Source: Ignisphaera sp. (GTDB lineage: Archaea; Thermoproteota; Thermoprotei_A; Sulfolobales; Ignisphaeraceae). From it: 25,287 nucleotides of DNA. The translations under genes were made by a program, and so were the position numbers. The stretch covers positions 1 to 25,287 of the forward strand of contig JAWAHS010000011.1 of assembly GCA_038889075.1 (NCBI GenBank), in the 5' to 3' direction. Under the pieces are notes generated by a model. That model saw only the letters and a list, made by a program, of their open reading frames with translations, was not told where the DNA came from and did not search any database. Positions 452 through 25,287 of the stretch are shown here, one piece after another. Numbering within the stretch: the first letter of the stretch is position 1; the number at the start of each line of letters is the position of its first letter.

Positions 452-1561
452 ATGCTTAATGCGCTAGAGGTACTCGGACTCGCACTAGCACTAGTACACT
501 TCACGGTCCCACTGGCGTACTATGCGTACGCTAAGCTAAGGTGGCTTAAAAGACCGTGGGACCTCAGTATAGACGAGAACTACAAGCCCAAGGTCACTGT
601 CATCATACCTACGTACAATGAGTCTAAACTCATAGAGAAGAAGCTAGACAACATCTACGAGCAGGACTACCCGAAAGAGCTTATGGAGATAGTAGTGGTG
701 GACTCGGCTAGCACGGACGGAACTCCGAGGCTAGTCGAGGAGTGGGCTTCTAGACACAAGGATGTTGAGCTCAAGCTAGTTGTCGAGAGCGAGAGGAGGG
801 GTAAGGCGTTTGCGTTAAACAACGCCCTGAGGTACGCAAGCGGTGAGGTAGTAGTGATAGCCGATGCCGACGCGCTGTGGCCTAGAGATGCTCTAACCAA
901 GGCAGTTAAGTGGCTATCGAACCCTTTAGTTGGAGCTGTCTCATGCCTGAAGAAGCCGCTGAGTTCAAGCACAACCAGTATCGAGGTAGGCTATAGACAG
1001 TACTACAACGTCTTGAGAGTTGCTGAGAGCAAAGCCTACTCCACACCGATATTCCACGGGGAGCTAGCAGCCTTCAGGAAAGACCTGCTGGAGAAAGTAG
1101 GAGGGTTTCCCACAGATATAGGAGCGGACGATAGCCACACGGCCACCAAGATAGCTCTAATGGGCTTTAGAGCGATAGTACCCGACGATCTGTGGGTAGA
1201 TGAGATGGTTCCAAAGGAAAAGTACTTCTCGTGGAGAGTTAGAAGAGCCCAGCATCTAATACAGCACTTCGCGAGAACCCTCAAGAACGTTAAACAAACG
1301 CCCGAAGAATTCAAAAAGATACTACTCGCAGAGTCCTTTCTACACATACTAAACCCGCTTCTATTACTCGCATCGGTAGCGATGCTAATCGTAGGTGCTT
1401 TAGCAGTCTCACTCTTAACTCTTGCAGTTCTAGCCGTTGGGATAGGATTGTTTGTAGTGAAACCTTACAAGACATGGGTTTTCTTACAGCTCTCCCTAGT
1501 GATGGCTACTTTAAGGAACCTGAAATCCAAGGAGATGGTCTGGAGCAAGCAAATCAAGTAG
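452..1561 (+). CDS. Family 2 glycosyltransferase with N- and C-terminal membrane helices
   Basis: VTVIIPTYNE, VVDSASTDGT, GKAFALN, DAD (DxD), GADD and RRAQ-type motifs; hydrophobic termini. Confidence 0.93.
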   Translation: MLNALEVLGLALALVHFTVPLAYYAYAKLRWLKRPWDLSIDENYKPKVTVIIPTYNESKLIEKKLDNIYEQDYPKELMEIVVVDSASTDGTPRLVEEWASRHKDVELKLVVESERRGKAFALNNALRYASGEVVVIADADALWPRDALTKAVKWLSNPLVGAVSCLKKPLSSSTTSIEVGYRQYYNVLRVAESKAYSTPIFHGELAAFRKDLLEKVGGFPTDIGADDSHTATKIALMGFRAIVPDDLWVDEMVPKEKYFSWRVRRAQHLIQHFARTLKNVKQTPEEFKKILLAESFLHILNPLLLLASVAMLIVGALAVSLLTLAVLAVGIGLFVVKPYKTWVFLQLSLVMATLRNLKSKEMVWSKQIK

Positions 1562-1565
1562 GGAT

Positions 1566-2046
1566 ATGAGGCTACTCTACATAGCTCCCCGCTACCATCC
1601 CTACATCGGAGGTGTAGAGCACGCCGTTAAGTCTGTAGCTGAGAGGCTCGCTAGGAGGGGACAGGAGGTCGCAGTACTCTGCGGTGAACCCGGCATCGAT
1701 AGCTCTAGAGAAGAATGGATCAACAACGTCTGCGTGGCTAGATGGCCCCTACGGGCTCCTGGAGATACTAACCACTTCCTGAGGATGAGAGGGGCCCTCG
1801 AGCGCTGGCTTCTGGATGTAGCTAAGAAGAGCGATGCAGTGTACTTCCACAGCATTCACAAAGTATTCTCTAAGTATCTTGAGGAACAGTAGTGTACGTG
1901 AGGTCTGGATGCCTTATTATTATGGTATAAATCACATGTTATCTGAGAGAGCTATTATCGAGTATTTTGAGGAGTATTTGATAAGAGCATTTTCAATGAC
2001 ATTAGCGTTGAGCAAGAGGTTTTCAACGTTGGAAGCGGTGTGTTGA
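1566..2046 (+). pseudogene. Family 4 glycosyltransferase, frameshifted and truncated
   Basis: The N-terminus MRLLYIAPRYHPYIGGVEHAVKSVAERLARRGQEV is typical GT4. It stops at 1892, and a degenerate continuation lies in the 1834..2046 frame (VWMPYYYG resembles the usual TPHYHG). No C-terminal nucleotide-sugar domain follows. Confidence 0.8.
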
Positions 2047-2415
2047 AGATATCTAAACTCACAATAACTGTGAAGACTCAATTGCTTAAGAGACTTTCTA
2101 ATCTCAGTGGAAGTTTAGAGAGTTATAAAATAATGAATACTTTTCGTAAAAACATCCATGTCACAGAAATATCTTTATACTCTTAATCACATACGCACTT
2201 GCATGAAAATGATTTTAAACCAGACCATATTGAAGGTATTTTCTCAGATATTACCAATACCGATAAGTAATTTTATGAGCATTAACGTTTCCCGAATATG
2301 ACAGAATCGCGTTTCTGAATAAGAATATCGCAACAAATCGAATATCGATAATGAAGTCAAAAGAAATTCTTATAACCAAGGCTATAGATAAAAATGAGAG
2401 GCTGAGGAAGCACCT

Positions 2416-3108
2416 ATGCCTAAAGTTACTGTAATCTCTATAGCAAAGCATGAGGCTGAATTCGAGAGATTGAAGAAAGCCTTAGAGATGCAGACTTTTA
2501 AGGATTTCGAATTTATCACGTCGACTAAGGGCTCAATACCCGAGGCTTGGAACGATGCTCTCTCAAGGGCTAAAGGCGAAATTATAGTTTTTATAGAGTC
2601 CGACGCTTTTCCGCTCAATGAGCATTGGCTTGAAGAAATCGTTGCTAACTTCCGAAAGGGCGCGGTACTGAAGGGCTTAGAGATCAACCCGACCAGCTTA
2701 AATCTTTGCAACCTAGTATGTGATGCAGAAATCTTCAAAAAGGTGAGATTTGATGAAAGTTTCAAATGTGCTGAAGACACGGAGCTATTCGCAAGGCTTA
2801 GAAAGATGGGGGTTGAAGTCGGCTTTGTAAACGCGTTTCCAGTGGTACACGTCCCATCACGCACGTGGAGGAAAACGCTTTCCAGAAGCTTCAGGAATGG
2901 TATGTACTTCATGAAGATTATATATATGCATGGCAAAGAAAACATAGATAACATAAACACACAAAACTTCAAAAGCAACTACATACACCCTATAAGTAAC
3001 AGGCTAAGAATAATAGTGGAAAATATTCTTGTACTACTGGGTCTGTTGATCGGAGCGGTCATCTATCTTCCGATTCTGATTAAGCGTAGATCAAAGAAAG
3101 ATACTTGA
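2416..3108 (+). CDS. Family 2 glycosyltransferase (short, one C-terminal TM)
   Basis: AWNDALSRAKGEIIVFIESDA, FDESFKCAEDTEL motifs; C-terminal hydrophobic helix. Confidence 0.88.
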   Translation: MPKVTVISIAKHEAEFERLKKALEMQTFKDFEFITSTKGSIPEAWNDALSRAKGEIIVFIESDAFPLNEHWLEEIVANFRKGAVLKGLEINPTSLNLCNLVCDAEIFKKVRFDESFKCAEDTELFARLRKMGVEVGFVNAFPVVHVPSRTWRKTLSRSFRNGMYFMKIIYMHGKENIDNINTQNFKSNYIHPISNRLRIIVENILVLLGLLIGAVIYLPILIKRRSKKDT

Positions 3109-3109
3109 T

Positions 3110-4027
3110 ATGGTCTACTCTGATTCTTACTATAATTCACCTATAATTGACAAATTGCTTTATAGTTACTTCACACGTATTCCGAGAGAGTTTGCGATAA
3201 GAGTCGCAAAGCACAATAAGGTACTCTATCAGCTTGGAAAGCTTTTCCCAGAAATACAAAAAAGTGATGAGTGGATCGAAATCTCCAAAAGACGTCATGC
3301 CCAAGTCGAAGAGCTCATAAAGTTTAATGAGATTGCTAACGAGGTAGGGTTAAAATATGCCGTTGTTAAGACATTTAGGTTTCCGGGGTATGTTCCTGAC
3401 GATATAGATATCTTAGTACATCCTGACTCACGACACTTGATCTGTGATTTCATCTCTTTACTCATTGAAAGATACGGATACTTCTTTAGAAGTAGAGGTA
3501 CTACTGAAATGACCATTCGGAAAAAATTATGTGGAACGTATGTAGATTTTGATATCCACACTAATTTAGCAGCTGGACCCTACATTTACTTAGATGCACG
3601 ATTTGTTTTCGAAAATCTTATCACAATAAAATTGAGACAAGAAAACATACCTACGGTACAGCAAAAACTTGAATTTGTCATTTGTGCGGCACATTCTATT
3701 ATGAAGGAGTTTGAATTAACATTAGCAGATGTGCTGACTTTTCTTTATCTTTACTCGCCCACGAATGAAACTGAAATTCTAGGGACAGCAAAACAAGTAG
3801 GCTTAACGAATGCTGTGAGCAGTTTCTGTAGGCTCTCTCAAATTATAGCCAAGAACTTGTCGCGGGGCAGAACAACAAATCTACCTTATAGGATTCCAAT
3901 ATACTTCATTCTGCATGCATACGTCGAAAACGTATCGTATAGAGCGAAGTTCTATGGCTTTAAACCCATTAAGGATCTGCTATTTTTCCCCAGTGCTAGA
4001 GGTATAAAGAAGTTAATCAAAATATAA
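3110..4027 (+). CDS. Nucleotidyltransferase-fold protein (NTP_transf_5-like)
   Basis: YAVVKTFRFPGYVPDDIDILV carries the DxD pair, VDFDIH supplies a third acidic residue, and AAHSIMKE is a helical motif of this group. Starts 1 nt after the GT2 stop. Confidence 0.75.
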   Translation: MVYSDSYYNSPIIDKLLYSYFTRIPREFAIRVAKHNKVLYQLGKLFPEIQKSDEWIEISKRRHAQVEELIKFNEIANEVGLKYAVVKTFRFPGYVPDDIDILVHPDSRHLICDFISLLIERYGYFFRSRGTTEMTIRKKLCGTYVDFDIHTNLAAGPYIYLDARFVFENLITIKLRQENIPTVQQKLEFVICAAHSIMKEFELTLADVLTFLYLYSPTNETEILGTAKQVGLTNAVSSFCRLSQIIAKNLSRGRTTNLPYRIPIYFILHAYVENVSYRAKFYGFKPIKDLLFFPSARGIKKLIKI

Positions 4028-4068
4028 AAGGTTCCGGACCCCATGCGCCAGCATAAGTTAAGAGTCAA

Positions 4069-4734
4069 ATGCGGGTCCATTATATGCATAATATGTATAG
4101 ACTGATATACTTTTTCGGTCCGGACGGAACTGGAAAAACTACTCATGCAGATCTCATAGCCGCTCGTCTGAGATCGATGGGATTTAAAGTTTGGCGAACA
4201 GGTGTTAAACATCATCACACCATTGCATACTTAATATTGAAGTTAATGGAGAGAGCCGGTTATGATATACGAATGATCAATTATTATGGGTTTTATAAAG
4301 AACTGGCTAACAAAATAAACCTTATCTGGAAGTTTATCGAGATTATTAGTTTTTTCATAGCATGGATTTATCGCATATATTTACCTTATCTTTTAGGTTA
4401 TATAGTGGTATGTGATCGTTATGTTTTGGATACTCTTGTTACACTTTCATATTTTTTAAAGGAGCCGAAGTTTATTACGAGCGAATTTGCAAGGTTGTTA
4501 ATCAAACTTATACCGAAGAACAGTCTTTTATTTTACTTAGAGGCAGATACTCAGAGCATCATGCTCAGAAAATTAGACGAGCCTCTCACATTGGAACTAA
4601 TTGAGTATTACAAACGAATGTACGCTCTCCTAATAAAGATTTATGGAATAAAAGCTAACAATATCAACACCGAAAGTGAAACTATTCAAAGTGTTCATGA
4701 GAAAATCGCGGGTCTTTTAGGTATTTCTGGTTGA
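4069..4734 (+). CDS. Thymidylate-kinase-like P-loop kinase (paralog 1)
   Basis: Walker A GPDGTGKTT, IVVCDRY, FYLEAD and lid RK. The real start may be ATG 4093. Confidence 0.85.
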   Translation: MRVHYMHNMYRLIYFFGPDGTGKTTHADLIAARLRSMGFKVWRTGVKHHHTIAYLILKLMERAGYDIRMINYYGFYKELANKINLIWKFIEIISFFIAWIYRIYLPYLLGYIVVCDRYVLDTLVTLSYFLKEPKFITSEFARLLIKLIPKNSLLFYLEADTQSIMLRKLDEPLTLELIEYYKRMYALLIKIYGIKANNINTESETIQSVHEKIAGLLGISG

Positions 4735-4972
4735 ATAATTTCAATATGAATGAAATTCATCATGTTGAGCTAAATTCTTTAAAACCTGTGGTCTATGCAA
4801 TATGGATGAGGAATATGATAGATTGTTCTTTTGAAAATGTTACTAAGTTAGATCCATGAATGCGATGATTGCATTAAGAGTACTTATTGAATCATAGTGG
4901 TATCTTAATGGATAACTGTCTTTCGGTTGACGCCGCGGGCTTTCCGCCTCTTTTAGCCTTTACAATAAATTC

Positions 4973-6181
4973 ATGTCTATGAAAATCATTATATTCTCTG
5001 AACTCCTTTATCCACATGGCGGAGGTGCAGAGCTGGCTACATGGCTTTACGCAAAACTTCTAGCTGAGAAAGGTTTCGATCTCTCTATAGTAACCAGCAA
5101 ATTTCCAAATGAAAAATCCTTCGAGATAATAAATGAACGAATAAGGGTTTATAGATTTCCCCATAAAGTTCTGCTTGGAACGAGATATTATGGAATAGCT
5201 AACATTGGAATTTTAATGGGGAACCTCATAACCAAATTGATTAAGAGAAGCGATGTTGTATACATTCCAGGCGGATGGTACTCAGCAATATTACTTGCGA
5301 AAACTTTCCGAAAACCTGTAGTACTGCATTTGCACAACTATTTTCTAGTGTGTCCTTTATCCTTAATGTACGATCTTGCAAAACAGAAAGTTGATTCTAG
5401 TTCGCTTAGATCATTTATGATTCATGAGTGCTTTGAAAAGAAACGAAATGTAACATCCGTTATAGTATCAAGCTTTGTACACGAATTTTTCGGAAGATAC
5501 TATAGTAGGCTCGGAAGAATGGCTGATGCTTTGATCTTCGTGAGTAAGGTCCAAAGAGATATAGTTTTGTCTAAAATCCCTAAATTGAGAGACAGGAGTT
5601 ACGTCATATATAACCCGCTTCCCGATGTTCCTCTTATCGAGGCTGAACGTAAAGGTATAGGGTATTTTGGCGGAAAACGCTTCGTGAAAGGCTTTCATGT
5701 TCTGATGTGCTCGTTAAAAATGCTTAAAACAAATTGCGAAGTTTACTTAGCGAATACGTCTGAGAAGCCTAAAAAGCTGAATATGCCTAATGGAGTTTTA
5801 GTAAATCTATTGCCTAAACTTGATAAGAAAAGCATCGAAAACCATTTGAAAAAGATCTCCATTGTGGCAGTTCCATCATTATGTCCCGAGCCTCTACCTT
5901 ATACGTTGGTTGAGTCTATGCTATCCGGTAAGCTAGTGGTTGCGTCAAATATTGGTGGAATACTTGAGGTTGTAGACAGGAACACGAATGGAGTAAAGTT
6001 AGTAAAACCGGGAGACTGCACCGAAATCGCAGAAGCATTAGACTATTATTTGTCTCTGAATCTTGAAGAGGCCAATGAAATAGGTGTTAAAAACAGAGAA
6101 TTTATTCTGAAAAGAATAAATAACGAAGCGATTATAAAAGAGTTTACGAGAGTTCTAGATTTTGTTGTCAACTTGATTTAA
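4973..6181 (+). CDS. Family 4 glycosyltransferase
   Basis: GGGAE, HLHNYFLVCP, FVSK, KG and PSLCPEPLPYTLVESMLSGKLVVASNIGGILE (EX7E). Confidence 0.95.
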   Translation: MSMKIIIFSELLYPHGGGAELATWLYAKLLAEKGFDLSIVTSKFPNEKSFEIINERIRVYRFPHKVLLGTRYYGIANIGILMGNLITKLIKRSDVVYIPGGWYSAILLAKTFRKPVVLHLHNYFLVCPLSLMYDLAKQKVDSSSLRSFMIHECFEKKRNVTSVIVSSFVHEFFGRYYSRLGRMADALIFVSKVQRDIVLSKIPKLRDRSYVIYNPLPDVPLIEAERKGIGYFGGKRFVKGFHVLMCSLKMLKTNCEVYLANTSEKPKKLNMPNGVLVNLLPKLDKKSIENHLKKISIVAVPSLCPEPLPYTLVESMLSGKLVVASNIGGILEVVDRNTNGVKLVKPGDCTEIAEALDYYLSLNLEEANEIGVKNREFILKRINNEAIIKEFTRVLDFVVNLI

Positions 6182-6393
6182 TTCAAATTAATTCAAAATA
6201 AACCTTTCGCTATGATTATGTTAAAATGACTCATTATCGTTGCGGTCATGCTGTTAAGGAAGTGATCAGCTCTACATACGACGAGGCTCTGTATGAGAGA
6301 AGGGATCAGCAATGTTCAAAAGGGAATGTAAAACTAAATAAAAACACGATATGTAGTAACTTAATAATATGGAATGAGAGGTATGGATGACGC

Positions 6394-8034
6394 GTGATGA
6401 AGCATTATAAAATTATTTCTATGGGTCGAAGGGTCGTATACAGGACCTTTTTGGTATTTTCGTTTCTCATTTTATTTATACCTAGTATAATATTATCGCT
6501 TGACGAATATATTGATCCCTTTGCGTTTCATACCGTCGGACTGGCTCAGATTTACTATAGAGAAGGAAGATATTTCCCAAATCCAATAATTGTGGGATCT
6601 GGATGGCAATCAACCGCAAACGATATTTCGATTAGGTTTGTCCCAACTTTACTTCTTTTGGTTTTAAGTAAAATTACTGGGATATCTTTATGGCATTTAC
6701 TTTTTTTACCTACGATCGGCATCATTTTTCCGTTGTTCGCATACTTAATATGCAAAAATCTTCGGTTACCAGTAACAATAGCGATTCTTTATGCGATTGT
6801 TACAAGTTATAACCTCTTTATGGTTAATGCGTATTATATTTCAGTAGGCATGTTCTTTTTTTTGGTTTTTATATACACTTCATTAAAATCTATAGAACAT
6901 CGACGATCAATAAAAGGCATTGATGTAAGCTTACTAATATTAATTTTCATCGCTGCATATTTTTCTTATTATACGTCAGAGTTTCTCATGCTAGGTTATA
7001 CCCTTAGCATTACGTTATTAGTGTGGGTTTGCGAAAAGTTTGGTGTAAAGAACCTCAAAGTAAAATACTTCTCATTGTTTTTGATTTTTCTAATTGTTTT
7101 TACAGGATTTGACAACATATTTTACTGGTATCTCGAGAGTATGAACGTTGAGAGGGCGTCGCATCTATTTAATTCTTACATCAACTACGTTTTACGTCTT
7201 TTGAAGAGTGGAGAGGAGGCCATTTTTGAATATAGGCCGCAAATAGGAAATCCCTTGCTTGTTTATATCGAATTCATTCAGCAAATACTCGTTTGGGCAG
7301 CGATCGGAGTATATTTAATATTTACTATTATCACTAAAATCAAAGATGTTAGAAAAATACCGACGGCACTATCCATTGAAGGACTAATCTTAATAGCACT
7401 CTTTTTGACAGGTATCATGGAAACATTAATATACCTTTCGGTCGGTTATGGTGTATATACTCGAACACTATCAATATTTTCATCATTGGGAGCTCTATAC
7501 TCCCTAGATAAACTAAGTGCAATTTTTCGTACGCAAAGAAAGAAGATTCTCAAAATAGTTTTTGTGGCGGTTGCGATATCAATTGCTTTAGCTAGTATTG
7601 CGAAATTTGCTATGCGGGTAGGTGATCCTGTAAACCCAAATGGGGCAAAATTGCATAGTAAAATGAACGTAACTATCTCGTGGGCACTTTCTTATGCTAC
7701 ACATAAAACGGTTATTGCAGACTTAAGAACCATTGGACAAACATTTTTCGAATTAACAAAGGGAGAGAAAATAAACTCCATAGTCTTACATAGATTGGGT
7801 CCAGAAGTGCGCTATTTGTACTCTTTTAGTAATGAAGGAATTAATATGTTATTTGGAAGGAAAGACGCTCTATTAGTATTATCTTATGAGTTTAGAGAGA
7901 GAGCATTTATCGCTGGAGAAGCCTGGAGATTCTCGCCACCACTTAGGGAAGCCTTCTTATTTTTAAATAATCATGAACAAGTAAACAGAGTTTTTGATGA
8001 TGGACGAGGCTTGATATATGAGTATAATAGGTAA
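6394..8034 (+). CDS. Multi-pass membrane protein (about 11-13 TMs) with a C-terminal soluble domain; GT-C/polymerase-like candidate
   Basis: Many long hydrophobic segments, an acidic DEYIDPFAFH loop after TM1 and a C-terminal NRVFDDG. The function is inferred from context. Confidence 0.75.
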   Translation: MMKHYKIISMGRRVVYRTFLVFSFLILFIPSIILSLDEYIDPFAFHTVGLAQIYYREGRYFPNPIIVGSGWQSTANDISIRFVPTLLLLVLSKITGISLWHLLFLPTIGIIFPLFAYLICKNLRLPVTIAILYAIVTSYNLFMVNAYYISVGMFFFLVFIYTSLKSIEHRRSIKGIDVSLLILIFIAAYFSYYTSEFLMLGYTLSITLLVWVCEKFGVKNLKVKYFSLFLIFLIVFTGFDNIFYWYLESMNVERASHLFNSYINYVLRLLKSGEEAIFEYRPQIGNPLLVYIEFIQQILVWAAIGVYLIFTIITKIKDVRKIPTALSIEGLILIALFLTGIMETLIYLSVGYGVYTRTLSIFSSLGALYSLDKLSAIFRTQRKKILKIVFVAVAISIALASIAKFAMRVGDPVNPNGAKLHSKMNVTISWALSYATHKTVIADLRTIGQTFFELTKGEKINSIVLHRLGPEVRYLYSFSNEGINMLFGRKDALLVLSYEFRERAFIAGEAWRFSPPLREAFLFLNNHEQVNRVFDDGRGLIYEYNR

Positions 8035-8716
8035 CAGACCAGGTTTAGTGATACTTGTAGGAACTGTTGGTTCTGGTAAGTCAACTCACTTAAGACTTCT
8101 AAATTCGGAATTGAAAAAGAATAGATTGAGGGTTAGAATGATTTGTCTAAAGACAGGCCACATGTTTGCCTTCATTTTAGAAGTTTTTCTAGCTAAAATA
8201 CTTATGAGTAACCGAAAGGGTGTTTATCCAATCAGGATACTGATCGATGAAAAGCCATTAGTATTTAAGAGAATCTTTAAATTGTGGATCCTCTTAGATT
8301 TAATAAGTATTACTGTAAAGTTTCTTGTAAGTATCTACTTACCCATGAAGTTAGGCTATACTCTATTGGTTGAAGAGTATATTCCAGCAACGATTTCCGA
8401 TTACATATACATAAGCAGAATCTTGCGATTCCCTTTAAAAATGAATTCCTTAATTATCAGATACTTGTTGAAATTAATGAATCTATGTACTCCCGTGCAA
8501 ACGGTCTTTTTGGATGCTGAAAACAATGAATTGTACCTTCGTTATAAACTCAGAGGAAGTCCCAATGAAACAGAGGACTACCTTAGAATGCAGCGCACAG
8601 TACTTTACCATATCGCAAAAACTCTTTCGAGTAACTTCCTATACATAAATACGAGTTCAAGAACTCCTAGTGAGGTTCATAGGCTAATAATGAATCATAT
8701 TTTTAATATAAAATAG
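8018..8716 (+). CDS. Thymidylate-kinase-like P-loop kinase (paralog 2)
   Basis: Walker A GTVGSGKST; LLVEEY at the DRY position; VFLDA; YINTS...EVH ending as in paralog 1. Overlaps the upstream gene by 17 nt. Confidence 0.82.
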   Translation: MSIIGNRPGLVILVGTVGSGKSTHLRLLNSELKKNRLRVRMICLKTGHMFAFILEVFLAKILMSNRKGVYPIRILIDEKPLVFKRIFKLWILLDLISITVKFLVSIYLPMKLGYTLLVEEYIPATISDYIYISRILRFPLKMNSLIIRYLLKLMNLCTPVQTVFLDAENNELYLRYKLRGSPNETEDYLRMQRTVLYHIAKTLSSNFLYINTSSRTPSEVHRLIMNHIFNIK

Positions 8717-9716
8717 TTTTGATAAACCCTATGAAATAATGCCAACCTTAACTATAATGCCGTCTTCTTCGAGTACAAACTGATTACTAGAAAATTTTTA
8801 TTCTGACTTCGCATTTAGTGGCTCAAGAGTATTTCTGATGCAACACCATAATACATTAACCTTTACAGGGTTGATTATCTCGTGGGTATGGATACATAAG
8901 CTGAGGAAGTCTTAAAAGTTAAAAGATTAATCTTGCATGACGAACTTTATGTAACAGAAATTTGAAGCTTCATCTTTAGTATAAGTTTTGACACAGTAGT
9001 GGCCATAAAAATACCTACGGTCTTCATTTCAGTGCGCTATTGAGAACATTGTTGAAGACATTGTCGAAGAACAAGGTTCAGTGATCATATCTTTGTCATT
9101 GCTTTCACGGGGTATTAGCGTCGAAGACCTTCATAAGCTAGGATATTATGTTTACAGATGTTTACTCTGAGCTTTCTGTCTTAATTAATTTGGAATACTA
9201 CAATGTCTTAGTAGCTATGGCTATAAGTCTTCTTTAGACTAGCAGTAGCTTGAAGTTCGTTGCCAACCTCCTTACCAAAACCTTCCTCAACGTGTCTATC
9301 CTTAATAGTTGCCGTCCTTTAGTCTTGTTCTGAGCTTTTCTTCAGCGTATCTTTTTATTTCCTGATCCTTCTTTGGTTTAAATGTTGCTTTTATGTTTGA
9401 GAGGATCTCTCGTTGTGTAGTTTATTGACTCCTTTCTGCTGAGGCTATTCGCAACCTTATTGATTAGTTCTTCGAATTGGACTACGTATAACTCCGTGTC
9501 GTCTTCCTTGCTCCTCTTCATTGTCACAGCCCCACCGTAACTAATACTGTTGTCCCCCATATATGTCTTGATAGTCTGTATCCAGCTGGCTATAGATAGG
9601 CTGAACTAGTGCTTGGTCTCGGCAGATTTGGGCTGTTTGACATACTTCTATGCGAAGTTTAACTTCGTCTAGTATTCGCACTGGTTTTCTCTCGAGAGGC
9701 GAGAATGTTGATGCTG

Positions 9717-10682
9717 TTAGTATTCTCTCGACCTCTGGGTAACCTGGAACTGGGGTTCTGGGGTACTGTATGTTTTTAGCTGGCTTATGGTCTTCTTAAG
9801 TCCTTCTTCGAGTGGTGTTGGCTTGAGTTGGGTAAGCCTCACTATCTTGCTGATGTCGGCTACACTATGCGTTATGTCTCCAGGTCTTTGTGGCATACGT
9901 ACTATCGGTAGCTCCCTGCCCAATAGCTTCATGATGGTTCTAGCGAGCTCCTCGATCGTGATAGGCTTTCCCGAGCCGATGTTGTAGACTTCGTTGTCGA
10001 AGACATCTCCCCTAACTATGTGTTCGATCACTTTAGCTACGTCTTCAACGTACACGAAGTCTCTAGTCTGAGTTCCTTCGCCGTAGATTACTAGTGGCTC
10101 ACCCCTCGAGGTTTTCTCCAAGAAGACCGTTACGACACCGGCGTACGAAGAGCTCTGACCGGGTCCATACACGTTGAATAGCCTTAGGGTTGCGTACTTT
10201 AAGCCGTACGTAGATGCGAAGACCTTCAGCACTTCCTCTCCCTGAAGCTTGCTCAACCCGTAGGGCGATAGAGGTCTCGCTGGGTGGTCTTCACCGATGG
10301 GTAGCTTCAGCGGCTCTCCGTAGACTGCTGCCGAGCTTAGGTACACTAGCTTTATACCCCTCTTCCCGCACTCATAGCCAACCCTAGCGGTACCCAAGAC
10401 GTTGTTCTCAAAGTACTTAATGGGTTCTCTAACTGATTCCTCTACACTTACGTAAGCAGCAGCGTGCACCACTACATCGACACCACCGTAACTACTGTAT
10501 TCCCTAACATCAGCTCTTACAATAGGTATCCCGAGCTCTTCAAGCCTCCTCAAAGCAAAAGCACTCGACCTCTCCATAGTGTCAACAACTACAACATCGT
10601 AGCCCCTCTTAGCTAGGTAGCACGCTACGTTATGACCAATAAAACCCGCACCCCCAGTGATCAAGACCCTCACGAACACCAC
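9717..10682 (-). CDS. NAD-dependent nucleotide-sugar epimerase/dehydratase (GalE-like extended SDR)
   Basis: TGGAGFIG, HAAA, SSAAVYG, YGLSK (YxxxK), FNVYGP and RDFVYVED. Confidence 0.95.
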   Translation of the reverse strand: MVFVRVLITGGAGFIGHNVACYLAKRGYDVVVVDTMERSSAFALRRLEELGIPIVRADVREYSSYGGVDVVVHAAAYVSVEESVREPIKYFENNVLGTARVGYECGKRGIKLVYLSSAAVYGEPLKLPIGEDHPARPLSPYGLSKLQGEEVLKVFASTYGLKYATLRLFNVYGPGQSSSYAGVVTVFLEKTSRGEPLVIYGEGTQTRDFVYVEDVAKVIEHIVRGDVFDNEVYNIGSGKPITIEELARTIMKLLGRELPIVRMPQRPGDITHSVADISKIVRLTQLKPTPLEEGLKKTISQLKTYSTPEPQFQVTQRSREY

Positions 10683-10969: not shown

Positions 10970-11926
10970 ATGATCTCGAAAGCTTATATATATCTTCATC
11001 ATAGTCTTATTGGGAGAATTATGAATTCTCGTAGAAAATGTGAGAATAGTACTTGTAAGGGTTCTTGTATCAAGGACAAGAGCTTCGATGAAATCAAGAA
11101 GAAAGCAGAGTTCCTGAAGCAGATCTGGAATAGACTTAAAGAGGAGTTAAGGCCTCCGGAAGCTGAATTTACCTTTCTCTATCAAAATGAGTATGCACCA
11201 CTAATTGGAACAATATGTGATGAAAGAGTGAAAACAGAATATGCATGGAGATTTCCAGAATGGCTTAACAGTAAGTTGGGTGGAATAACCTTAGAGAAAA
11301 TCATTGAATTAGGTGAGAAAGGGGTTAGAGAATACTTAGAGGAATACTTCAAGAACAAATGGCCTAGCGGAATGAAGAAAGAAGATAGAGAAGATTACTT
11401 GAAGAAAATATCACGTTACATAGTAGAGGCCATGAATTTTCTTAAGAAAAGAGGAGTTACACCGATAACTATGTTCGAAAATAGAGAATATAAGGCAGCT
11501 GAGGTTTACTTCATGCTTCGACAATTTAACGGTATTGGTCCTAAGAAAGCTAAGATGATCACAAAGTACTTCCTTTTCACTAGCATGGATATTCTTAAAA
11601 ACTATCCTTGGTTTGATCAAATAAAAGCAAAGAATCCGGAATTCAAAGTATTGGGGGTAATAATGCCGCCTATAGATGTTCATGTAGTTAAAGTGTTCTG
11701 CCGAATCTTCGGGGAAGATCTAAGGAAAAGGAATTGGAATAAAGCAAAAAATGATCCAGACTTGATACAGGATATAGAAGCATTTTCTCAACTTGCTTTT
11801 CCAGATATACCTATGATTATTGACGAGATCTTTTGGAATATAGGTAGAAAGTATTGTGATGAAGAAAAACCAAAATGTCAAGAGTGTCCATTGAACAAGA
11901 TATGTGATGTGTACAAGAAAATATAG
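10970..11926 (+). CDS. HhH-GPD DNA glycosylase/endonuclease III superfamily protein with [4Fe-4S] motif
   Basis: HhH FNGIGPKKA, catalytic Asp in PIDVHV, and C-x6-C-x2-C-x5-C (CDEEKPKCQECPLNKIC). The likely start is ATG 11021, with a TATA-like TTATATA at ~10984. Confidence 0.88.
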   Translation: MISKAYIYLHHSLIGRIMNSRRKCENSTCKGSCIKDKSFDEIKKKAEFLKQIWNRLKEELRPPEAEFTFLYQNEYAPLIGTICDERVKTEYAWRFPEWLNSKLGGITLEKIIELGEKGVREYLEEYFKNKWPSGMKKEDREDYLKKISRYIVEAMNFLKKRGVTPITMFENREYKAAEVYFMLRQFNGIGPKKAKMITKYFLFTSMDILKNYPWFDQIKAKNPEFKVLGVIMPPIDVHVVKVFCRIFGEDLRKRNWNKAKNDPDLIQDIEAFSQLAFPDIPMIIDEIFWNIGRKYCDEEKPKCQECPLNKICDVYKKI

Positions 11927-13281: not shown

Positions 13282-14223
13282 ATGTTCTCGGGTAGTCTTC
13301 GTGGAAAAGAATTCACATTTACTCTCATTTTATCAGCTATATTCACAGTAGCTCTATTCTACTCTACTCTTGAAGCACCAATACTTCTAGATAAAGTGCT
13401 TCACCAGTACTTTCCCGAAGTATTCTACGATGTAGAGGCTATAGAAAGAGTCCTCAGCATACTGAGGCCTGTTGGCTACACAACACTAGCTATAACCATT
13501 GTTCTAATACTACTGGGTTTCATGATTAAGAAAGGTATCTTAGCTTCTCTAGGCTCTCTAGTTTTGTACATCCCTACGTTTGGTTATTTTGCATACGCTA
13601 TGTTCTTTCAAACAGGTTTAGGGGTTTTAAGAACTCTCTGGCTACCACTACTTGAACTCTCCCCTTCAACTTTAAAACTAGGGTGTGTAGTGTATCTACC
13701 CTTCTCGGTTGTTCCACATGCACCTCTCATAGGACTGGTTATTACGCTTATCGGTCTCTTCATATTCCTACTAGGTGTAACTACATGGCTCTATGGAAGA
13801 TTCAAAGGATACGAAATCATAGACTTCTGGATTTATAGATATAGTAGACATCCCCAGTACCTTGGATTCATACTCTGGAGCTACGGTCTACTAATATTCG
13901 TAAGCAACAAAGCCTACGTGAGAGGAGCATTCACAACACCACCAGCACTCATATGGCTCATATCAACAATACTCGTGATAGAGATAGCACTCACCGAGGA
14001 ACTCGAAATGAAGAAGAAGTATGGAGAGAAATACGAAGAGTACTGTAGGAAAACCCCATTCATGATCCCTCTACCAGGAATACTAACTAGAGCCATAAAA
14101 ACACCCTTAAAACTCATAGGTGGATACCTAAGAAGTGTAAGAGAAATAGCTTTTGCAATAACCCTGTACACAACTATATTCATTGCAGTCTCCTACATTC
14201 TCATGCTAATGTCGCTTTGTTAA
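13282..14223 (+). CDS. Membrane methyltransferase-like protein (ICMT/PEMT/DUF1295 family)
   Basis: IYRYSRHPQYLG and EE...KKKYGEKYEEYCRKTPFMIP motifs; multiple TMs. Confidence 0.85.
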   Translation: MFSGSLRGKEFTFTLILSAIFTVALFYSTLEAPILLDKVLHQYFPEVFYDVEAIERVLSILRPVGYTTLAITIVLILLGFMIKKGILASLGSLVLYIPTFGYFAYAMFFQTGLGVLRTLWLPLLELSPSTLKLGCVVYLPFSVVPHAPLIGLVITLIGLFIFLLGVTTWLYGRFKGYEIIDFWIYRYSRHPQYLGFILWSYGLLIFVSNKAYVRGAFTTPPALIWLISTILVIEIALTEELEMKKKYGEKYEEYCRKTPFMIPLPGILTRAIKTPLKLIGGYLRSVREIAFAITLYTTIFIAVSYILMLMSLC

Positions 14224-14943
14224 TTCTAGATACTTGAGAGAATAATACCCAGAAACATCGCAAGTACACTAGGTACGTTTTACCTTATAGCGTATACATC
14301 TTCTTATTCCAACGTTAATCGTTAATAGCTAAGTTTGACTAGTTTCCATGAGAAACTTAGCTATATTTCACAGAGCTACCTTAACAACTCTAATGATATT
14401 CCAATTTATTAAAAGCTGAAGACTTGGAAAGCGCTATCCGAAGGGCGGATACATCATCTTACAGGAACGAACGTATAATTTTCGTTGATAATGTTATATG
14501 TGTTCATGAAAAGGTATAAACAGGTATCGTAGATTAGGGTTTGCATAGAAGATTATATCACAGATTTCGTAGGATGATTCTTCGTTTAACTTATCCCTAA
14601 ACCCTAGTTGAAAACGGCTTCACAACAAGTCTTTATATTATCTTGATAATTGAGCCACACAATCGACTAAACAGGTCTACGCTTCTTCTTGTTTAACTCT
14701 TTAAAAGCTTTAGCAATCTCAATGTTGAAACTCCTCAGGGCACGTATGAGAATACTTGGTGACTGTAAGCCTTAATCGTTTCTGTTAATCACCATTAATG
14801 GAATACTGCTAGTCGAATGCCCTCGTGTTTTCAATTAAGACTTAGTGCTACCGTTTAAAACGCTAGAGATGTTTTGGAATATGAGTTGTATACACACATC
14901 TGTAAATTTAAATCTCTACTTAGTGACTCGAATAAGCTTGGCG

Positions 14944-14983
14944 AAAAAGTTTTAAGTAACCATGTTACTAGGTATACTAGGTA
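14944..14983 (+). promoter_or_regulatory. BRE/TATA promoter with a putative antitoxin operator
   Basis: AAAAAG-TTTTAAG ~35-45 nt before ATG 14990, followed by the inverted repeat AGTAAC-cat-GTTACT (14955-14969) and tandem TACTAGGTA x2 (14966-14983). Confidence 0.55.
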
Positions 14984-14989
14984 CACTAT

Positions 14990-15241
14990 ATGGGTGTCTC
15001 AGTGTCTATTAAGGTTCGTAGAGAGCTTGTTGAACTAGCTGATAAAATGGTTAAATACGGTATTGCTAGAAGTAGATCACATGCTTTCAACATAATGATA
15101 GAGAAGGGTTTAGCTGAGGTTACCAGAGAGGTTGAGTACTGGGATAGCATCTATAGAAAAGTAGAGGAGCTAGAGAAGCAAGGATACAAACTAAGACACG
15201 GTGGCTTAAACCAGGTTTTACAAGAGGAGAGAACAAGGTAG
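14990..15241 (+). CDS. vapB: VapB-type antitoxin (RHH/CopG-like)
   Basis: 83 aa; N-terminal beta strand VSVSIKV, then helices with SRSHA; C-terminal LQEER; directly upstream of a PIN gene. Confidence 0.8.
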   Translation: MGVSVSIKVRRELVELADKMVKYGIARSRSHAFNIMIEKGLAEVTREVEYWDSIYRKVEELEKQGYKLRHGGLNQVLQEERTR

Positions 15242-15267
15242 ATCCGGTATTACGCTGGGTTGATTAA

Positions 15268-15684
15268 ATGATCTACGTAGATACTAATCTAATTGTATCC
15301 TATATTGATGAAGCCGACCCTAATCACGAGAAAGCCGCTGAGCTAATTAAGGCAATAAAATAGAGAAGTATATCCAGATTAACACTTGTAGAGCTAGCAT
15401 CTGTTTTCTCGAGAGCTGGACTAGAAGAACCTGTAGCTCTAGCACTCTACTCTATAAGAAGCGTTAAAGCAGATAAAGTTCAGGTAGACTTCAATGAGCT
15501 TTTGAACCAAGCAGTAAAATATGCACCTATTCTAAGGCTTAGAACACTAGACCTACTACACCTAGTAGCAAGCTTACTAACTGAATGCAGAAAATTCGCT
15601 ACACTAGATACAGATATAATCAAGAAATCCGATATCATCTCAAAAACATTGGGTATAGAGGTATTAATACCAAAGAAGACTTAA
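15268..15684 (+). pseudogene. vapC: VapC PIN-domain toxin with one in-frame TAG at codon 32
   Basis: Manual translation gives MIYVDTNLIVSYIDEADPNHEKAAELIKAIK*RSISRLTLVELASVFSR...LRTLDLLHLVA...FATLDTD...; TAG is at 15361-15363. Confidence 0.88.
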
Positions 15685-15735
15685 CTCTACAAACATCAAC
15701 CACGTTTAAAATACGGTGATATCTAGTGATCGACT

Positions 15736-15923
15736 TCAAGCATTTATGTGTATGTTTATCTCCATAACTCCAGGTACTTCACCGATATTCCAGAGGCTTA
15801 AGGATATCTTGATCAAGCTATTGTAGGCCTGCATGTATAGCTGTTGTATGTATTCGCTACCAGATTCTTCGATATACATCTTTACAACTTACTAATGTCT
15901 AAGTAAACTATCTTCTCTCTCAT
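15736..15923 (-). pseudogene. vapC: Second VapC PIN toxin, frameshifted and truncated
   Basis: MREKIVYLDISKL* (15923-15882), then a shifted frame VKMYIEESGSEYIQQLYMQAYNSLIKISLSLWNIGEVPGV...* (15885-15736). This matches the YLDxSxxVKxYxxExGS...SxWNIGEV VapC subtype. Confidence 0.78.
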
Positions 15924-16050
15924 TCCGCATCTCTCTAACAAGTTCACTAACGGGAGTCTTCGCCTTAATAGGTTTGAAATCCGGTTCCGTATCTAACCCA
16001 TTAACAAGCTCCCTAACCACAGCCTCTAGATCCACCATAAGCTCCTCCAT
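15892..16050 (-). pseudogene. C-terminal remnant of a VapB-type antitoxin
   Basis: MEELMVDLEAVVRELVNGLDTEPDFKPIKAKTPVSELVREMRNEREDSLLRH*; the VSELVREMRxER ending overlaps the toxin start; no intact N-terminal DNA-binding part. Confidence 0.65.
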
Positions 16051-16304
16051 AAGAAGATCCTTAGCTTACAGTCTTTTTTAGTTGCATCTCGTGGCTGTGT
16101 TCTACTTGAAGAGGTTTTAAGCTTTCCACAGAAGTGTTTTTCAACCTCTCCGAGGGAAAGTCCATGGAACCTCGGTAGCTAGTAGAAGTGTTCTCGGAGG
16201 TGAGCTTATGTGGGGAACTGTTGAGAAATAAGTGGTTAAGAGGCTTAATGTGAGAGAACACTAACCCATGAAAACGGTAATCATGTATAGGGAGCGTGGA
16301 GGGG

Positions 16305-16392
16305 TGGCGCCGGGGGCGGGATTTGAACCCGCGCGGGGTGTTCCCCCACCGGCTTAGCAGGCCGGCGCCCTACCAGGCTAGGCGACCCCGGC
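16305..16392 (-). tRNA. tRNA-Ser(GCT), intronless, CCA encoded
   Basis: Reverse complement reads GCCGGGG...CCGGC-CT-GCT-AA-GCCGG, long variable arm, GGTTCAAATCC, CCCCGGC-G-CCA. Confidence 0.97.
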
Positions 16393-16523: not shown

Positions 16524-17582
16524 GTGCCTAGGATAGATGTTGGTAGAGCTCCTATAGAGTATGTTGATGGTGATCCTAAGGCTGTTGTTGAGAAGTTTTT
16601 AGCTGTTTTAGAGGCTTCGGGTGCTGATGGGAAGACCGTTAAGAGCTATAGGGCTGCTCTAAACGATTTTTTCAATTTTGTTGGTTGGAAGCCCTTTAAA
16701 TCCATTACCTATGACGATATATATACGTGGAGGCTTGAGAGGCTTAGGAGAGGGTTTCCAGGTGCTAAGTATGGTGATAGGAGGTCTAGGGAGAATACGC
16801 TATACTACTATACACTGTTTCTCAGGAGATTCTTCGAATGGCTTAATCTAGATATAAGGTTTCCGAGCATCAGAAGACCTAGGAGGAGGGAGATACAGAC
16901 CCTTAAACCTGAGGAGATACACAGACTTTTTGCCGCTGCTAGAGACCATCTAGATCTACTAGTACTGTCACTCCTTCTCGAAACAGGTCTCAGAGCTGAA
17001 GAAGCTCTAAGCCTCAGGTATAGCGATATAGATTTGAAAAGTAGGGAGATTAGGGTTAGAAATGCGAAATTCGATGAGGAGAGAGTGGTATTCATAGGCG
17101 ATATCACAGCACAGATACTCACACAGATAATCAGTTTAAAGATGCCTACACCTGAAGCCAGGGTACTGCCCATAAGCTACAGCGGTCTGTATAAAAGGCT
17201 GAAGAGTCTAGCCAAAAGAGCAGGGATAGATGCAAATAAAGTAAGACCGCATATAATGAGACACACCTTTGCTACAGAAGCTCTTAAGAAGGGACTGAAT
17301 ATAGTATCCCTACAGCAGATCCTAGGACACAGAGACCTAAAAACAACGGAAATCTATCTACATCTACTACACGATGATGTAAAAGATCACTACCTGAAGA
17401 CATTTAGAAGTATAATAGCCTCTACAACACCGCCACAGACAACAGCCGCTCCACCTCAAGGCCTATATAGCATACCGGTACAGCAACAGCCATACACTAC
17501 ACAGAATCTGTGTCCATACTGCCACTCATCGGTACCTCCAAACGCTAGATTCTGTCCATACTGTGGAGCTAGACTCTACTAG
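16524..17582 (+). CDS. xerA: XerA-like tyrosine recombinase with a C-terminal zinc ribbon
   Basis: N-terminal TVKSYRAAL; catalytic set ETGLR, K (NAKF), HIMRH, LGH and TTEIY all present; tail CPYC-x10-CPYCG. Confidence 0.85.
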
Positions 17583-18562: not shown

Positions 18563-19669
18563 CTATGTTGTAATGGGGTATCTTGTTATTGCGGCAACAC
18601 ATCCAAAGGTATCCTTAAACCAGCTGTACTCATCCATGGAACTGGGTAGCAGTATTAGTTTCGCACCTCCTTCGGATGCCATCTTCTCAAATTTCTCCAC
18701 CTCTACACTCTCTTCACATATAAGTATCTTATCAACTGCACCATTCTCTAAAGCTGTCTCAACATCCTTCAAACCGTAGACTACATAGCCATCGCCCTTA
18801 GCTATATGGTATTTAAACTCATCTATAGCACTAATAACTTCAACAAATCTCTGTTTAGTTAAGATATCCTTAGCTTTTACAATAACCTCCCTAAGCCCTA
18901 CAATACCCTGGTAAGCAACATCTATCGGTTCTCCAACAATAATCTTCCTTATCCTATAGTCTAGATTGTCAGCTTCCTTAAGAAAATCGTGCTTAGCGTA
19001 CCCAGGGCCTGCTACTATAACACCCTTCATCTTACCCTCCTCTACCAGTGGAATAAAGTAGCTATTGGCCTTTTCAGCAACGTGTTTATAGAACTCCTCA
19101 ACCATCTGCTCAATAATTCTATCAAATCTTCTCTGACTCTGACCACCTTTGTGGTGCTTTCCTGGTATAAACCACTCTATCTCATCTAGAACCTGTATAC
19201 CTGAGGGTTTGAGCAGACCTATTGTCGCTTCATCTCTCTCTATAATTATAATACCGTATATATCGGATTCCTCAACCATTGGTTCTAGAAACTCTGTATG
19301 GAATTCCTTATCAGTTCTGTAAAAGTATATCGGAACGGGATCGGGTGGGGAAAACAGTAGCACCATACTATCATCTGCATCCTCATTTATACCACTGAAT
19401 ACCACGAGACCATTCCTCGGCGTTTCCCTTAGCTTGGATAGCCTCTCTATAGCTGTAGTTAAAGCCCATTGAACCGCATCCCTCGTCTTCTTCAACTTTA
19501 TATTCTCTGTTATGGCAAGCTCTTGGCGAAGCATGTTAACAACTTCACTAATAGGTCTGCCGGGAGGTATATAGAGACTGAGTAGCGTTGTTGCATGGGC
19601 ATGCCATTTTTTAAGTTCCTTCAATATATTCTTCAGCGTTCTCCTATCTATATTAAACCTCTCATCCAA
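18563..19669 (-). CDS. prf1: Peptide chain release factor aRF1
   Basis: LLSLYIPPGR, ENIKL (NIKS equivalent), YRTDKEF, PGKHHKGGQSQRRF and AGPG. Confidence 0.97.
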   Translation of the reverse strand: MDERFNIDRRTLKNILKELKKWHAHATTLLSLYIPPGRPISEVVNMLRQELAITENIKLKKTRDAVQWALTTAIERLSKLRETPRNGLVVFSGINEDADDSMVLLFSPPDPVPIYFYRTDKEFHTEFLEPMVEESDIYGIIIIERDEATIGLLKPSGIQVLDEIEWFIPGKHHKGGQSQRRFDRIIEQMVEEFYKHVAEKANSYFIPLVEEGKMKGVIVAGPGYAKHDFLKEADNLDYRIRKIIVGEPIDVAYQGIVGLREVIVKAKDILTKQRFVEVISAIDEFKYHIAKGDGYVVYGLKDVETALENGAVDKILICEESVEVEKFEKMASEGGAKLILLPSSMDEYSWFKDTFGCVAAITRYPITT

Positions 19670-24756: not shown

Positions 24757-24843
24757 GCCGGGGTGGCCGAGTGGTTAAGGCGGTGGGCTCGAGACCCACT
24801 GGGGTACATCCCCACGCGGGTTCGAATCCCGCCCCCGGCGCCA
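24757..24843 (+). tRNA. tRNA-Ser(CGA), intronless, CCA encoded
   Basis: GCCGGGG...GTGGG-CT-CGA-GA-CCCAC, long variable arm, GGTTCGAATCC, CCCCGGC-G-CCA. Confidence 0.97.
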
Positions 24844-24858
24844 AGCAAACACCGTAAA

Positions 24859-24919
24859 GGTCCGATGCAAATCGATGGGCGGTCTGAAAAGTGATGAACC
24901 ATTGTAGAGTTAAAGGGCC
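24859..24919 (+). ncRNA. Candidate box C/D 2'-O-methylation guide sRNA
   Basis: CTGA (24884-24887)-AAA-GTGATGA (24891-24897), flanked by two segments antisense to conserved 16S rRNA sequences; terminal stem GGTCC/GGGCC; outer C and D boxes degenerate. Confidence 0.62.
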
Positions 24920-24968
24920 GCGGAAACACAATAAAACTTTTAATCACAGGCTACAGCAGGTTACATAG

Positions 24969-25042
24969 GGGCCCGTAGCTCAGTCTGGCAGAGCGCCCGG
25001 CTGATAACCGGGAGGTCGGGGGTTCAAATCCCCCCGGGCCCA
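24969..25042 (+). tRNA. tRNA-Ile(GAT), CCA not encoded
   Basis: GGGCCCG...CCCGG-CT-GAT-AA-CCGGG...GGTTCAAATCC...CGGGCCC-A. Confidence 0.97.
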
Positions 25043-25159
25043 CTCTACTAGAATACCGGAATCGACCTGCACATCAATTCTGATATGGAATACATTTCCT
25101 TTAAAACCTTATAACCTCTATAAAAATAGTTTGGAGATGGGTTCGAGCTTTTAGAAAAA

Positions 25160-25245
<86 letters not shown>

Positions 25246-25287
25246 CTATCTTTCCGGCTCTTCATAGATCTAGATAGAGTTCATAGT

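Follow-up and report, generated by a model that had tools for sequence, protein, structure and literature searches.

The genes analysed here lie on a stretch of 25,287 nucleotides (nt) from Ignisphaera sp. (GenBank assembly GCA_038889075.1, contig JAWAHS010000011.1, positions 1 to 25,287 of the forward strand), the whole of which is referred to below as the window. Six closely packed open reading frames (ORFs) occupy its plus strand between 2416 and 8716 and encode, in order, a small glycosyltransferase (GT) of the GT2 type (GT2b), a nucleotidyltransferase (NTase), a first P-loop kinase (K1), a glycosyltransferase of the GT4 type, a protein with multiple transmembrane (TM) segments and a second P-loop kinase (K2) (Table 1). 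An earlier note, made from the sequence alone, had described a GT2 gene 1 nt from the gene of a DxD NTase, then kinase 1, GT4 and a multi-TM gene overlapped by kinase 2, and this layout was confirmed by the ORF coordinates. Very probably, the NTase and K1 work together as a single conserved unit of surface-glycan clusters, and K1 is not a thymidylate kinase (Tmk) with an incidental neighbour.

Table 1. Coordinates of the six-gene module (first six rows) and of other features of the window.
Feature	Position	Strand	Description
GT2b	2416..3108	+	Small GT2-like glycosyltransferase, 230 aa, C-terminal hydrophobic helix
NTase	3110..4027	+	Pol-beta-fold nucleotidyltransferase, probably a divergent NTP_transf_5 (PF14907) protein; starts 1 nt past the GT2b stop
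K1	4069..4734	+	Thymidylate-kinase-fold P-loop kinase; 41-nt gap after NTase
GT4	4973..6181	+	GT-B glycosyltransferase
Multi-TM protein	6394..8034	+	546 aa; possibly a GT-C-type membrane glycosyltransferase (lead only)
K2	8018..8716	+	Second P-loop kinase, K1 paralogue; 17-nt overlap with the multi-TM gene
GT2a	452-1561		Full GT2, upstream of the module
GT4 N-terminal remnant	1566..1892	+	108 aa; Pfam Glyco_transf_4, 36.7 bits, profile positions 1-83 of 170 only
GalE-like epimerase	9717-10682	-	Downstream of the module
HhH-GPD/EndoIII-like protein	10970-11926	+	C-terminal Fe-S motif; below Pfam cut-offs; just outside the glycan module
ICMT/PEMT/DUF1295-type methyltransferase	13282-14223	+	Multi-TM; just outside the glycan module
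tRNA-Ser(GCT)	16305-16392	-	
XerA/tyrosine-integrase-like gene	16524-17582	+	Cys-rich C-terminal tail; 131 nt from tRNA-Ser(GCT)
aRF1	18563-19669		NAD kinase and PIMT are also encoded in the window

For the analysis of gene neighbourhoods, the K1 alignment (A1) was scanned over one genome per species (GTDB set), and 62 kinase loci (numbered with the prefix L; 43 archaeal and 19 bacterial by record title) were fetched from other genomes. Their ORFs were searched with hidden Markov models (HMMs) of A1 and of the NTase alignment (A2), and each locus was classed by its closest kinase-NTase pair. The pairing was present in 40 of the 62 loci: the NTase gene lay no more than 150 nt from the kinase gene in 24 (13 with the NTase then the kinase, 10 with the kinase then the NTase and 1 with the two on opposite strands), within 2.5 kb in 8 and at 5-6 kb in 2, and both domains were encoded in one ORF in 6, all bacterial. 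The kinase lay less than 1.5 kb from a contig end, with no NTase, at 10 loci, which are uninformative; 11 lacked an NTase although their flanks were adequate, and 1 gave no kinase match. The 34 loci with a separate NTase gene were all archaeal, and accounted for 34 of the 43 archaeal loci; seven of the nine archaeal loci without an NTase were at contig ends, and the other two (L024 and L035) carried K2 and K1 followed by a Wzx flippase. By lineage, the two genes are separate in no fewer than six archaeal groups, and fused proteins come from Chloroflexota and candidate division TA06. This arrangement is far beyond chance, and adjacency in both gene orders combined with recurrent fusion is strong evidence of shared function, in line with the cooperation between kinases and NTase that the earlier note had supposed.

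K1 passed the cut-off of the Pfam family PF02223 Thymidylate_kin (37.2 bits, cut-off 27) and remained far below that of the dTMP-kinase equivalog model TIGR00041 (cut-off 83.25 bits; 28.7 for K1 and 20.4 for K2). The motifs comprise a Walker A (GPDGTGKT), D116-R117-Y118, lid R167 and a family-specific W87; in A1 (32 sequences), G17, G20, G22, K23, T25, H50, W87, Y118 and R167 were invariant, D116, R117 and D121 nearly invariant, and two aromatic stretches, 'NYYGF' and 'SYF', were conserved. The structural model (pLDDT 86.1) has the thymidylate kinase (TMK) fold, and the approximately 40 Foldseek matches in the PDB listed for it (ranks 1-50) were all TMKs, with query-normalised TM-scores (TMq) of 0.55-0.67 and 14-20% identity. 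Model confidence was lowest (65-79) at residues ~69-102. HMMER alignments of K1 or of profile A1 to TMK structures were confined to the P-loop and residues ~103-213; the stretch at ~69-102 was omitted from the profile-TMK alignments and was spanned by one low-score alignment (15-169) of low confidence. By sequence alignment, the dTMP-binding region that lies between the P-loop and D-R-Y of TMKs has no conserved counterpart in K1. Several K1-type loci may occur in one metagenome-assembled genome (MAG), up to three being found (L001/L004, L006/L020/L038 and L012/L025). Since the TIGR00041 cut-off is missed, the acceptor region has diverged and the genes occur in multiple copies in glycan clusters, neither K1 nor K2 is, to judge from sequence, a canonical housekeeping dTMP kinase, as the earlier note had maintained.

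Among 452 candidates in a large protein collection, 95 were relatives of K1, nearly all of 205-240 aa, from MAGs labelled Korarchaeota, Bathyarchaeia, Nitrososphaeria, Thermoproteota, Thermofilaceae, Ignisphaera, Thermosphaera and Anstonellales, and the source annotations were only 'hypothetical protein' or 'thymidylate kinase'. A search for K1 homologues of greater length gave none, and the fused forms came from the loci and from a fused-protein query. The start of K1 is uncertain (possibly 4093) because the homologue alignments begin at M9 (4093). Two other identities for the kinase were dropped, namely BY-kinase/Wzc, as the fold is that of TMK and not MinD-like, and sulfotransferase, as the Walker A is of the classical GxxGxGK(T/S) form.

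K2 and K1 are paralogues over their full lengths (27% identity, E 2e-14); K2 scored 21.4 bits with PF02223, below the cut-off, and also matched P-loop families. The P-loop is kept, E-E-Y stands where TMKs carry D-R-Y, and the lid reads R-x-K-L-R-G-S. In the corresponding subfamily, which is present in L004, L005, L008, L009, L012, L020, L024, L029, L033 and L035, a conserved (V/I)-E-E-(Y/H) replaces C-D-R-Y and the lid is R-W-K-x-R-G-S. The D-R-Y arginine of TMKs binds the acceptor phosphate; because of this replacement, K2 would be without the putative acceptor-phosphate arginine. Sequence searches of the PDB with K2 and with the NTase yielded nothing meaningful. Its motifs place K2 in a sister kinase subfamily that is a frequent companion of the NTase and K1.

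The NTase scored 25.8 bits (E 9.7e-6) with PF14907 NTP_transf_5, below the Pfam cut-off of 31.2. An exhaustive HMMER search for its relatives gave 182 representatives at E<=1e-3, 37 at <=1e-10 and 8 at <=1e-30, and the window protein with 59 of 150 listed relatives made up A2 (60 sequences). As 50 of these 60 sequences matched PF14907 at E<=1e-3, the window protein probably belongs to a divergent branch of that family. K87, D98 and D100 were invariant in A2, and H195 and K199 nearly so. The AlphaFold (AF2) model (pLDDT 94.2, pTM 0.92) and the alignment show a Pol-beta NTase fold with a DxD metal motif (D98 and D100), which bears out the DxD NTase claimed before. Foldseek matches in the PDB included MenT1, a fungal NTase-like protein, ANT(2'')-Ia, TglT/MenT3, LnuA and Pol lambda/mu; of these, ANT(2'')-Ia and LnuA are nucleotidyltransferases that act on sugar hydroxyls. 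A complex of the NTase (A2) with K1 (A1) was also predicted, with a score of 0.00, a mark of 0.32 and the verdict 'no answer', which is neutral on binding.

PF14907 and PF02223 were found together in single ORFs of 596-902 aa at L036, L040, L041, L044, L048 and L056 (6 of the 13 long ORFs scanned), and at L036, from TA06, the NTase and kinase are followed by a C-terminal GT4 domain in the same ORF. With the L044 fusion (2737-4551) as query, 53 proteins were found, 46 of them with both Pfam domains. Their source names were only 'thymidylate kinase' or 'dTMP kinase'. The fused bacterial proteins scored 30-45 bits with TIGR00041 (cut-off 83.25) and up to 55.6 bits with PF14907, and NCBIfam has no model describing fused NTase-kinase proteins. 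The fusions conserve the P-loop, W87, D-R-Y and R167 of the kinase and K87, D100, H150 and H195 of the NTase, whereas D98 is Asn in 50 of 51 fused proteins (P0246-P0296), giving N-x-D in place of the archaeal D-x-D. The stretch from the P-loop to W87 was variable in the fused proteins, often with long low-complexity inserts. At the Actinomycetota loci L049, L052, L054, L057 and L060, the kinase domain followed an N-terminal region of 260-480 aa with no Pfam family. Comparison (hhalign) of the NTase profile with the ~320-aa N-termini of L054 and L057 gave weak matches (probability 13% and 35%) that cover only a 'GRD(L/V)D' strand over the catalytic D-x-D, and this region could represent an NTase that is either minimal or highly diverged.

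GT2b scored 26.6 bits with the Pfam family Glycos_transf_2, and strong homologues lay immediately upstream of the NTase in L001, L003, L005, L007, L008, L009 and L011. GT4 matched Glyco_trans_1_4, Glycos_transf_1 and Glyco_transf_4, and its homologues (E 1e-92 to 1e-190) were downstream of K1 in L001 and L003-L012. The four-gene core GT2b-NTase-K1-GT4 was syntenic in the closest relatives (L001, L003, L005, L007-L009 and L011), and L005, a Pyrobaculum MAG, carried the full set including the multi-TM protein and K2. No TM segments were predicted in K1, the NTase, GT4 or GT2b, save for the GT2b tail. In the 39 loci with both kinase and NTase that entered the gene selection (which did not include L044), a GT4-family gene directly flanked the kinase or the NTase in 21; since GT4 genes already made up 76 of the 554 genes (14%), this is a modest enrichment at most.

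Homologues of the multi-TM protein were detectable in only 2 of the 62 loci (L001 and L005), and no match was found in Pfam or NCBIfam. The nearest ESM Atlas clusters included 'Glycosyltransferase RgtA/B/C/D-like', PMT_2 (12% of members) and DUF2206 (10%), a lead by which the protein is possibly a GT-C-type enzyme. No similarity was found by BLASTP (E 0.30) between it and a 572-aa membrane protein in the same slot of L008. The earlier note had proposed examining the co-occurrence of NTase, kinase and GT genes across archaea; it held for NTase and kinase, and was weaker for GT4. The multi-TM protein, too, was less firmly linked.

The GT4 remnant upstream of GT2b matched, by blastx, residues 1-~100 of GT4 proteins of 365-390 aa in L016, L027, L022 and L037, and blastx of 1893-2415 against the related loci gave no match. 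At the more distant loci L016, L027 and L033, full-length relatives of 365-390 aa immediately precede the NTase, and the remnant travels with the cluster, as short remnants persist in L003 and L005.

In a scan of neighbouring genes, all kinase-NTase contexts were glycan clusters. Neighbours included many GT4 and GT2 genes, a Wzx-type flippase (Polysacc_synt), DUF1616, UDP-GlcNAc 2-epimerase, FkbM and other S-adenosylmethionine (SAM) methyltransferases, a GFO/IDH/MocA oxidoreductase, radical-SAM proteins, a DegT aminotransferase and a MacB-type ABC transporter; among related loci, L018, L024, L029 and L035 are examples with the flippase gene downstream of the pair. At L027 and L028, a 'Phosphodiest' gene of the alkaline-phosphatase superfamily was in line with the kinase and the NTase, and at L014, L016 and L026 such a gene lay close by. 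No phosphoenolpyruvate (PEP) mutase was found among the scanned neighbours, and no lasso-peptide genes in the window or the scanned neighbours. Within the window, neither Wzx nor AglB was found; it carries GT2a, GT2b, GT4, the GT-C-like TM protein (the Atlas lead) and the GalE-like epimerase.

In L014 (4614-20085) and L016 (1463-19444), both from Nitrososphaeria MAGs of the ammonia-oxidiser type, the pair stood beside an exosortase-like membrane protein of 720-750 aa and a Wzx flippase, together with a G1P-dehydrogenase-like Fe-ADH protein, an NTP_transferase, a CDP-alcohol phosphatidyltransferase and a Phosphodiest protein. By their family assignments, these neighbours form a second, conventional phosphodiester-substituent route in the same cluster.

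The window is archaeal, as its genes for aRF1, a XerA-type integrase, NAD kinase and PIMT show. The module coincides with a low-GC island, with GC of 33-38% at 2001-9000 against 48-50% upstream and 43-45% downstream, and its proteins are 55-94% identical to counterparts in MAGs labelled Korarchaeota, Bathyarchaeia, Nitrososphaeria and Pyrobaculum. The cross-phylum identity and the low-GC island together suggest lateral transfer of the glycan cluster. The 1 kb after K2 (8717-9716) is free of ORFs of 80 aa or longer and strongly biased to T over A (AT skew -0.295 at 9001-10000); it matched nothing in Rfam and showed no homology with the related loci. Further downstream, ~2.3 kb upstream of the integrase-like gene (14224-16304) is nearly devoid of ORFs, and the tRNA-Ser(GCT)/integrase region could mark where an integrated element ends. 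At the end of the window (24757-25246, plus strand), tRNA genes Ser-CGA, Ile-GAT and Leu-CAA stand in series.

As for what the unit does, we tentatively favour a two-step tailoring of sugars, phosphorylation followed by decoration of the phosphate, and put its chances a little below even. K1 would use ATP to phosphorylate a sugar residue of a growing, probably lipid-linked, glycan on the cytoplasmic side, and K2 may phosphorylate at a second position. The Pol-beta-fold NTase would then, with a nucleotide-activated donor (a nucleoside triphosphate (NTP) or a nucleoside diphosphate (NDP)-sugar), turn the phosphate into a decoration of phosphodiester type. Building or extending the glycan would be the task of the GT4 and GT2 enzymes nearby, and membrane handling would fall to the multi-TM protein, if GT-C-like, and in related loci to the Wzx flippase. 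The catalytic motifs are intact in both enzymes (Walker A, D-R-Y and lid R167 in K1; D98 and D100 in the NTase).

A parallel is provided by the lasso peptide pseudomycoidin, for which the available text of the report (PMC6993621) describes that PsmK phosphorylates the C-terminal serine and that PsmN, inactive as the D134A/D136A mutant, is needed for the hexose(s) on that phosphate; the paeninodin cluster is given there as without psmN. The order of phosphorylation then decoration is favoured because of this parallel, because NTase-less versions occur in both systems (PsmK-related clusters according to the same text; L024 and L035 here), and because of the two kinase paralogues and the recurrent phosphodiesterase-superfamily genes. 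The NTase step looks optional, since L024 and L035 carry K2-K1 beside Wzx, with full flanks and no NTase, and the presence of two kinase paralogues in a cluster is easier to reconcile with two phosphorylations than with one activation step.

Several points weigh against phosphorylation and decoration of a glycan. The evidence fits a glycan, a free sugar or a nucleotide as the acceptor, and the retained D-R-Y arginine of K1, the acceptor-phosphate binder of TMKs, would fit an acceptor phosphate rather than a hydroxyl. Neither LicD, FKRP nor a known glycan phosphotransferase came up in the sequence or fold searches listed: Pfam gave no LicD match for the NTase at E<=0.1, the ~40 Foldseek matches listed (ranks 1-50) included neither LicD nor FKRP, and an Atlas 'LicD family' cluster near the NTase at a score of 0.75 is a lead at best. 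The LicD/FKRP analogy drawn in the earlier note thus had no backing from these sequence and fold matches. The metal site of the fused proteins differs, because N-x-D replaces D-x-D, and the 11 loci with adequate flanks and no NTase have kinases without the second enzyme. The GT4 link is weaker than the pairing itself, being, at 21 of 39 loci, hardly above what would be expected by chance in GT-rich clusters. For the parallel too, PsmN may only make the substrate for a host glycosyltransferase (PMC6993621, available text). As described there, PsmK is HPr-kinase-like, whereas K1 and K2 match Thymidylate_kin and AAA families, and PsmN is likened to the NTase by description.

The main rival, which we consider unlikely, is precursor activation, by which K1 would phosphorylate a free unusual sugar and the NTase would join the product with a nucleoside monophosphate (NMP) to give an NDP-sugar, the donor for GT4. 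Kinase-NTase fusions are common, one being a triple fusion with GT4 (L036), and have the same design as the bifunctional sugar-activating enzymes HldE and FKP. This reading would also suit the position of GT4 immediately after K1 in the closest relatives (L001 and L005-L012), the three proteins, for which no TM segment is predicted save in the tail of GT2b, and the K1 aromatics (W87, Y118, 'NYYGF' and 'SYF'), which could serve in sugar binding. Neither fold, however, is known for its step: sugar 1-kinases are GHMP, ROK or APH-like, sugar-1-P nucleotidyltransferases are RmlA/GlmU-like, and Pol-beta NTases normally attack with a hydroxyl and not a phosphate. Moreover, L024 and L035 have kinases and no NTase, two kinase paralogues per cluster are left unexplained, and the association with GT4 is statistically weak outside the close relatives.

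Chemistry on the nucleotide side, in which K1 and K2 would recycle the NMP released by a phosphotransferase-type NTase or phosphorylate the ribose of a nucleotidylated intermediate, is decidedly improbable. The fold has a nucleotide as its ancestral substrate, and K1 retains the TMK fold with Walker A, D-R-Y and the lid arginine. NTases are fused to P-loop kinases in the same manner in PAPS synthase (APS kinase) and CoA synthase (dephospho-CoA kinase), and the order of NTase then kinase in the fused proteins is that of CoA synthase. Nevertheless, the NMP-binding region of TMKs is unalignable in K1, the score is far below the dTMP-kinase cut-off and K2 is without the D-R-Y arginine; recycling would be redundant given housekeeping NMP kinases, and we know of no glycan pathway with a 3'-phosphorylated nucleotide donor besides PAPS.

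There is only a very small chance that the genes are neighbours with no functional tie, or that a toxin-antitoxin pair (NTase as toxin, kinase as antitoxin; MenT/TglT-TakA type) or a defence pair happens to lie in a glycan island: MenT1 and MenT3/TglT are the best structural matches of the NTase and the GC content (33-38%) is below that of the flanks (43-50%), but the similarity to MenT is low (TMq 0.37-0.41, 11-14% identity), PADLOC gave only weak P-loop-level matches for K1 and K2 (E 7e-4 to 6e-3) and none for the NTase, GT2b, GT4 or TM protein, so that a defence or toxin-antitoxin identity was dropped, and 40 of the 62 loci show the pairing, in each case surrounded by glycosyltransferase genes and with a fusion to GT4 among them.

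Overall, the kinase-NTase module is real, undescribed and widespread, and the earlier interpretation is supported in part. Its statement that no characterised pathway has this gene set agrees with a search of the full text of the literature (subscription journals not covered), in which the pair received only a passing mention (PMC8942020). In the available text of a 2024 review of archaeal N-glycosylation (PMC11407970), 'kinase', 'thymidylate' and 'nucleotidyltransferase' do not occur. Archaeal surface glycans are chemically very diverse and few tailoring enzymes are known. For archaeal and bacterial members alike, the family label 'thymidylate kinase' is probably wrong. PF14907 remains a family of 'uncharacterised nucleotidyltransferase', and a defined partner and natural single-polypeptide fusions offer a direct way to its reaction. 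That a TMK-fold kinase and an NTP_transf_5 NTase make up a new, widespread class of glycan tailoring, with a phosphate-bridged decoration (phosphoglycosylation or nucleotidylation) or a new activated donor as the outcome, is somewhat on the unlikely side; if true, either chemistry would be new for any polysaccharide or archaeal glycan.

Of the known systems, Tmk resembles K1 in fold, Walker A, D-R-Y and lid arginine and in passing the PF02223 cut-off, and differs from K1 and K2 in that these miss TIGR00041, have an unalignable acceptor region and (in K2) E-E-Y, and occur in multiple copies in glycan clusters and, in bacteria, in fusion with an NTase. LicD, fukutin and FKRP share with the NTase the NTase fold, the DxD motif and a location in glycan clusters, and differ in the lack of a sequence match or of a place among the structural matches listed. 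Enzymes of the LicD/FKRP type move X-phosphate from NDP-X to a sugar hydroxyl and are a plausible mechanistic analogue. PAPS synthase, CoA synthase and HldE likewise fuse nucleotidyl transfer with a kinase, the two acting consecutively on one small molecule; their NTases have other folds, and none surfaced in the sequence or fold searches. In an inventory of phosphonate clusters, the available text of which calls the case unusual and leaves it unexplained, a thymidylate kinase and PF14907 flank PEP mutase in gene cluster family (GCF) 540 (PMC8942020); the same two Pfam families are thus side by side, but in a phosphonate context, whereas the neighbours scanned here include no PEP mutase. PsmK and PsmN, as described in the available text of PMC6993621, are the one such pair that has been studied, a P-loop kinase and an 'uncharacterised NTP transferase' with a DxD metal site and a resemblance to ANT(2''), which act on a ribosomal peptide from a cluster for peptides made on the ribosome and modified after translation (RiPPs), whereas the present pair is found in clusters of glycosyltransferases and flippases. 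If the product of the pair were a phosphate-bridged glycan decoration, it would represent a new enzyme logic for glycan phospho-modification beside LicD/FKRP, Stealth and WbdD.

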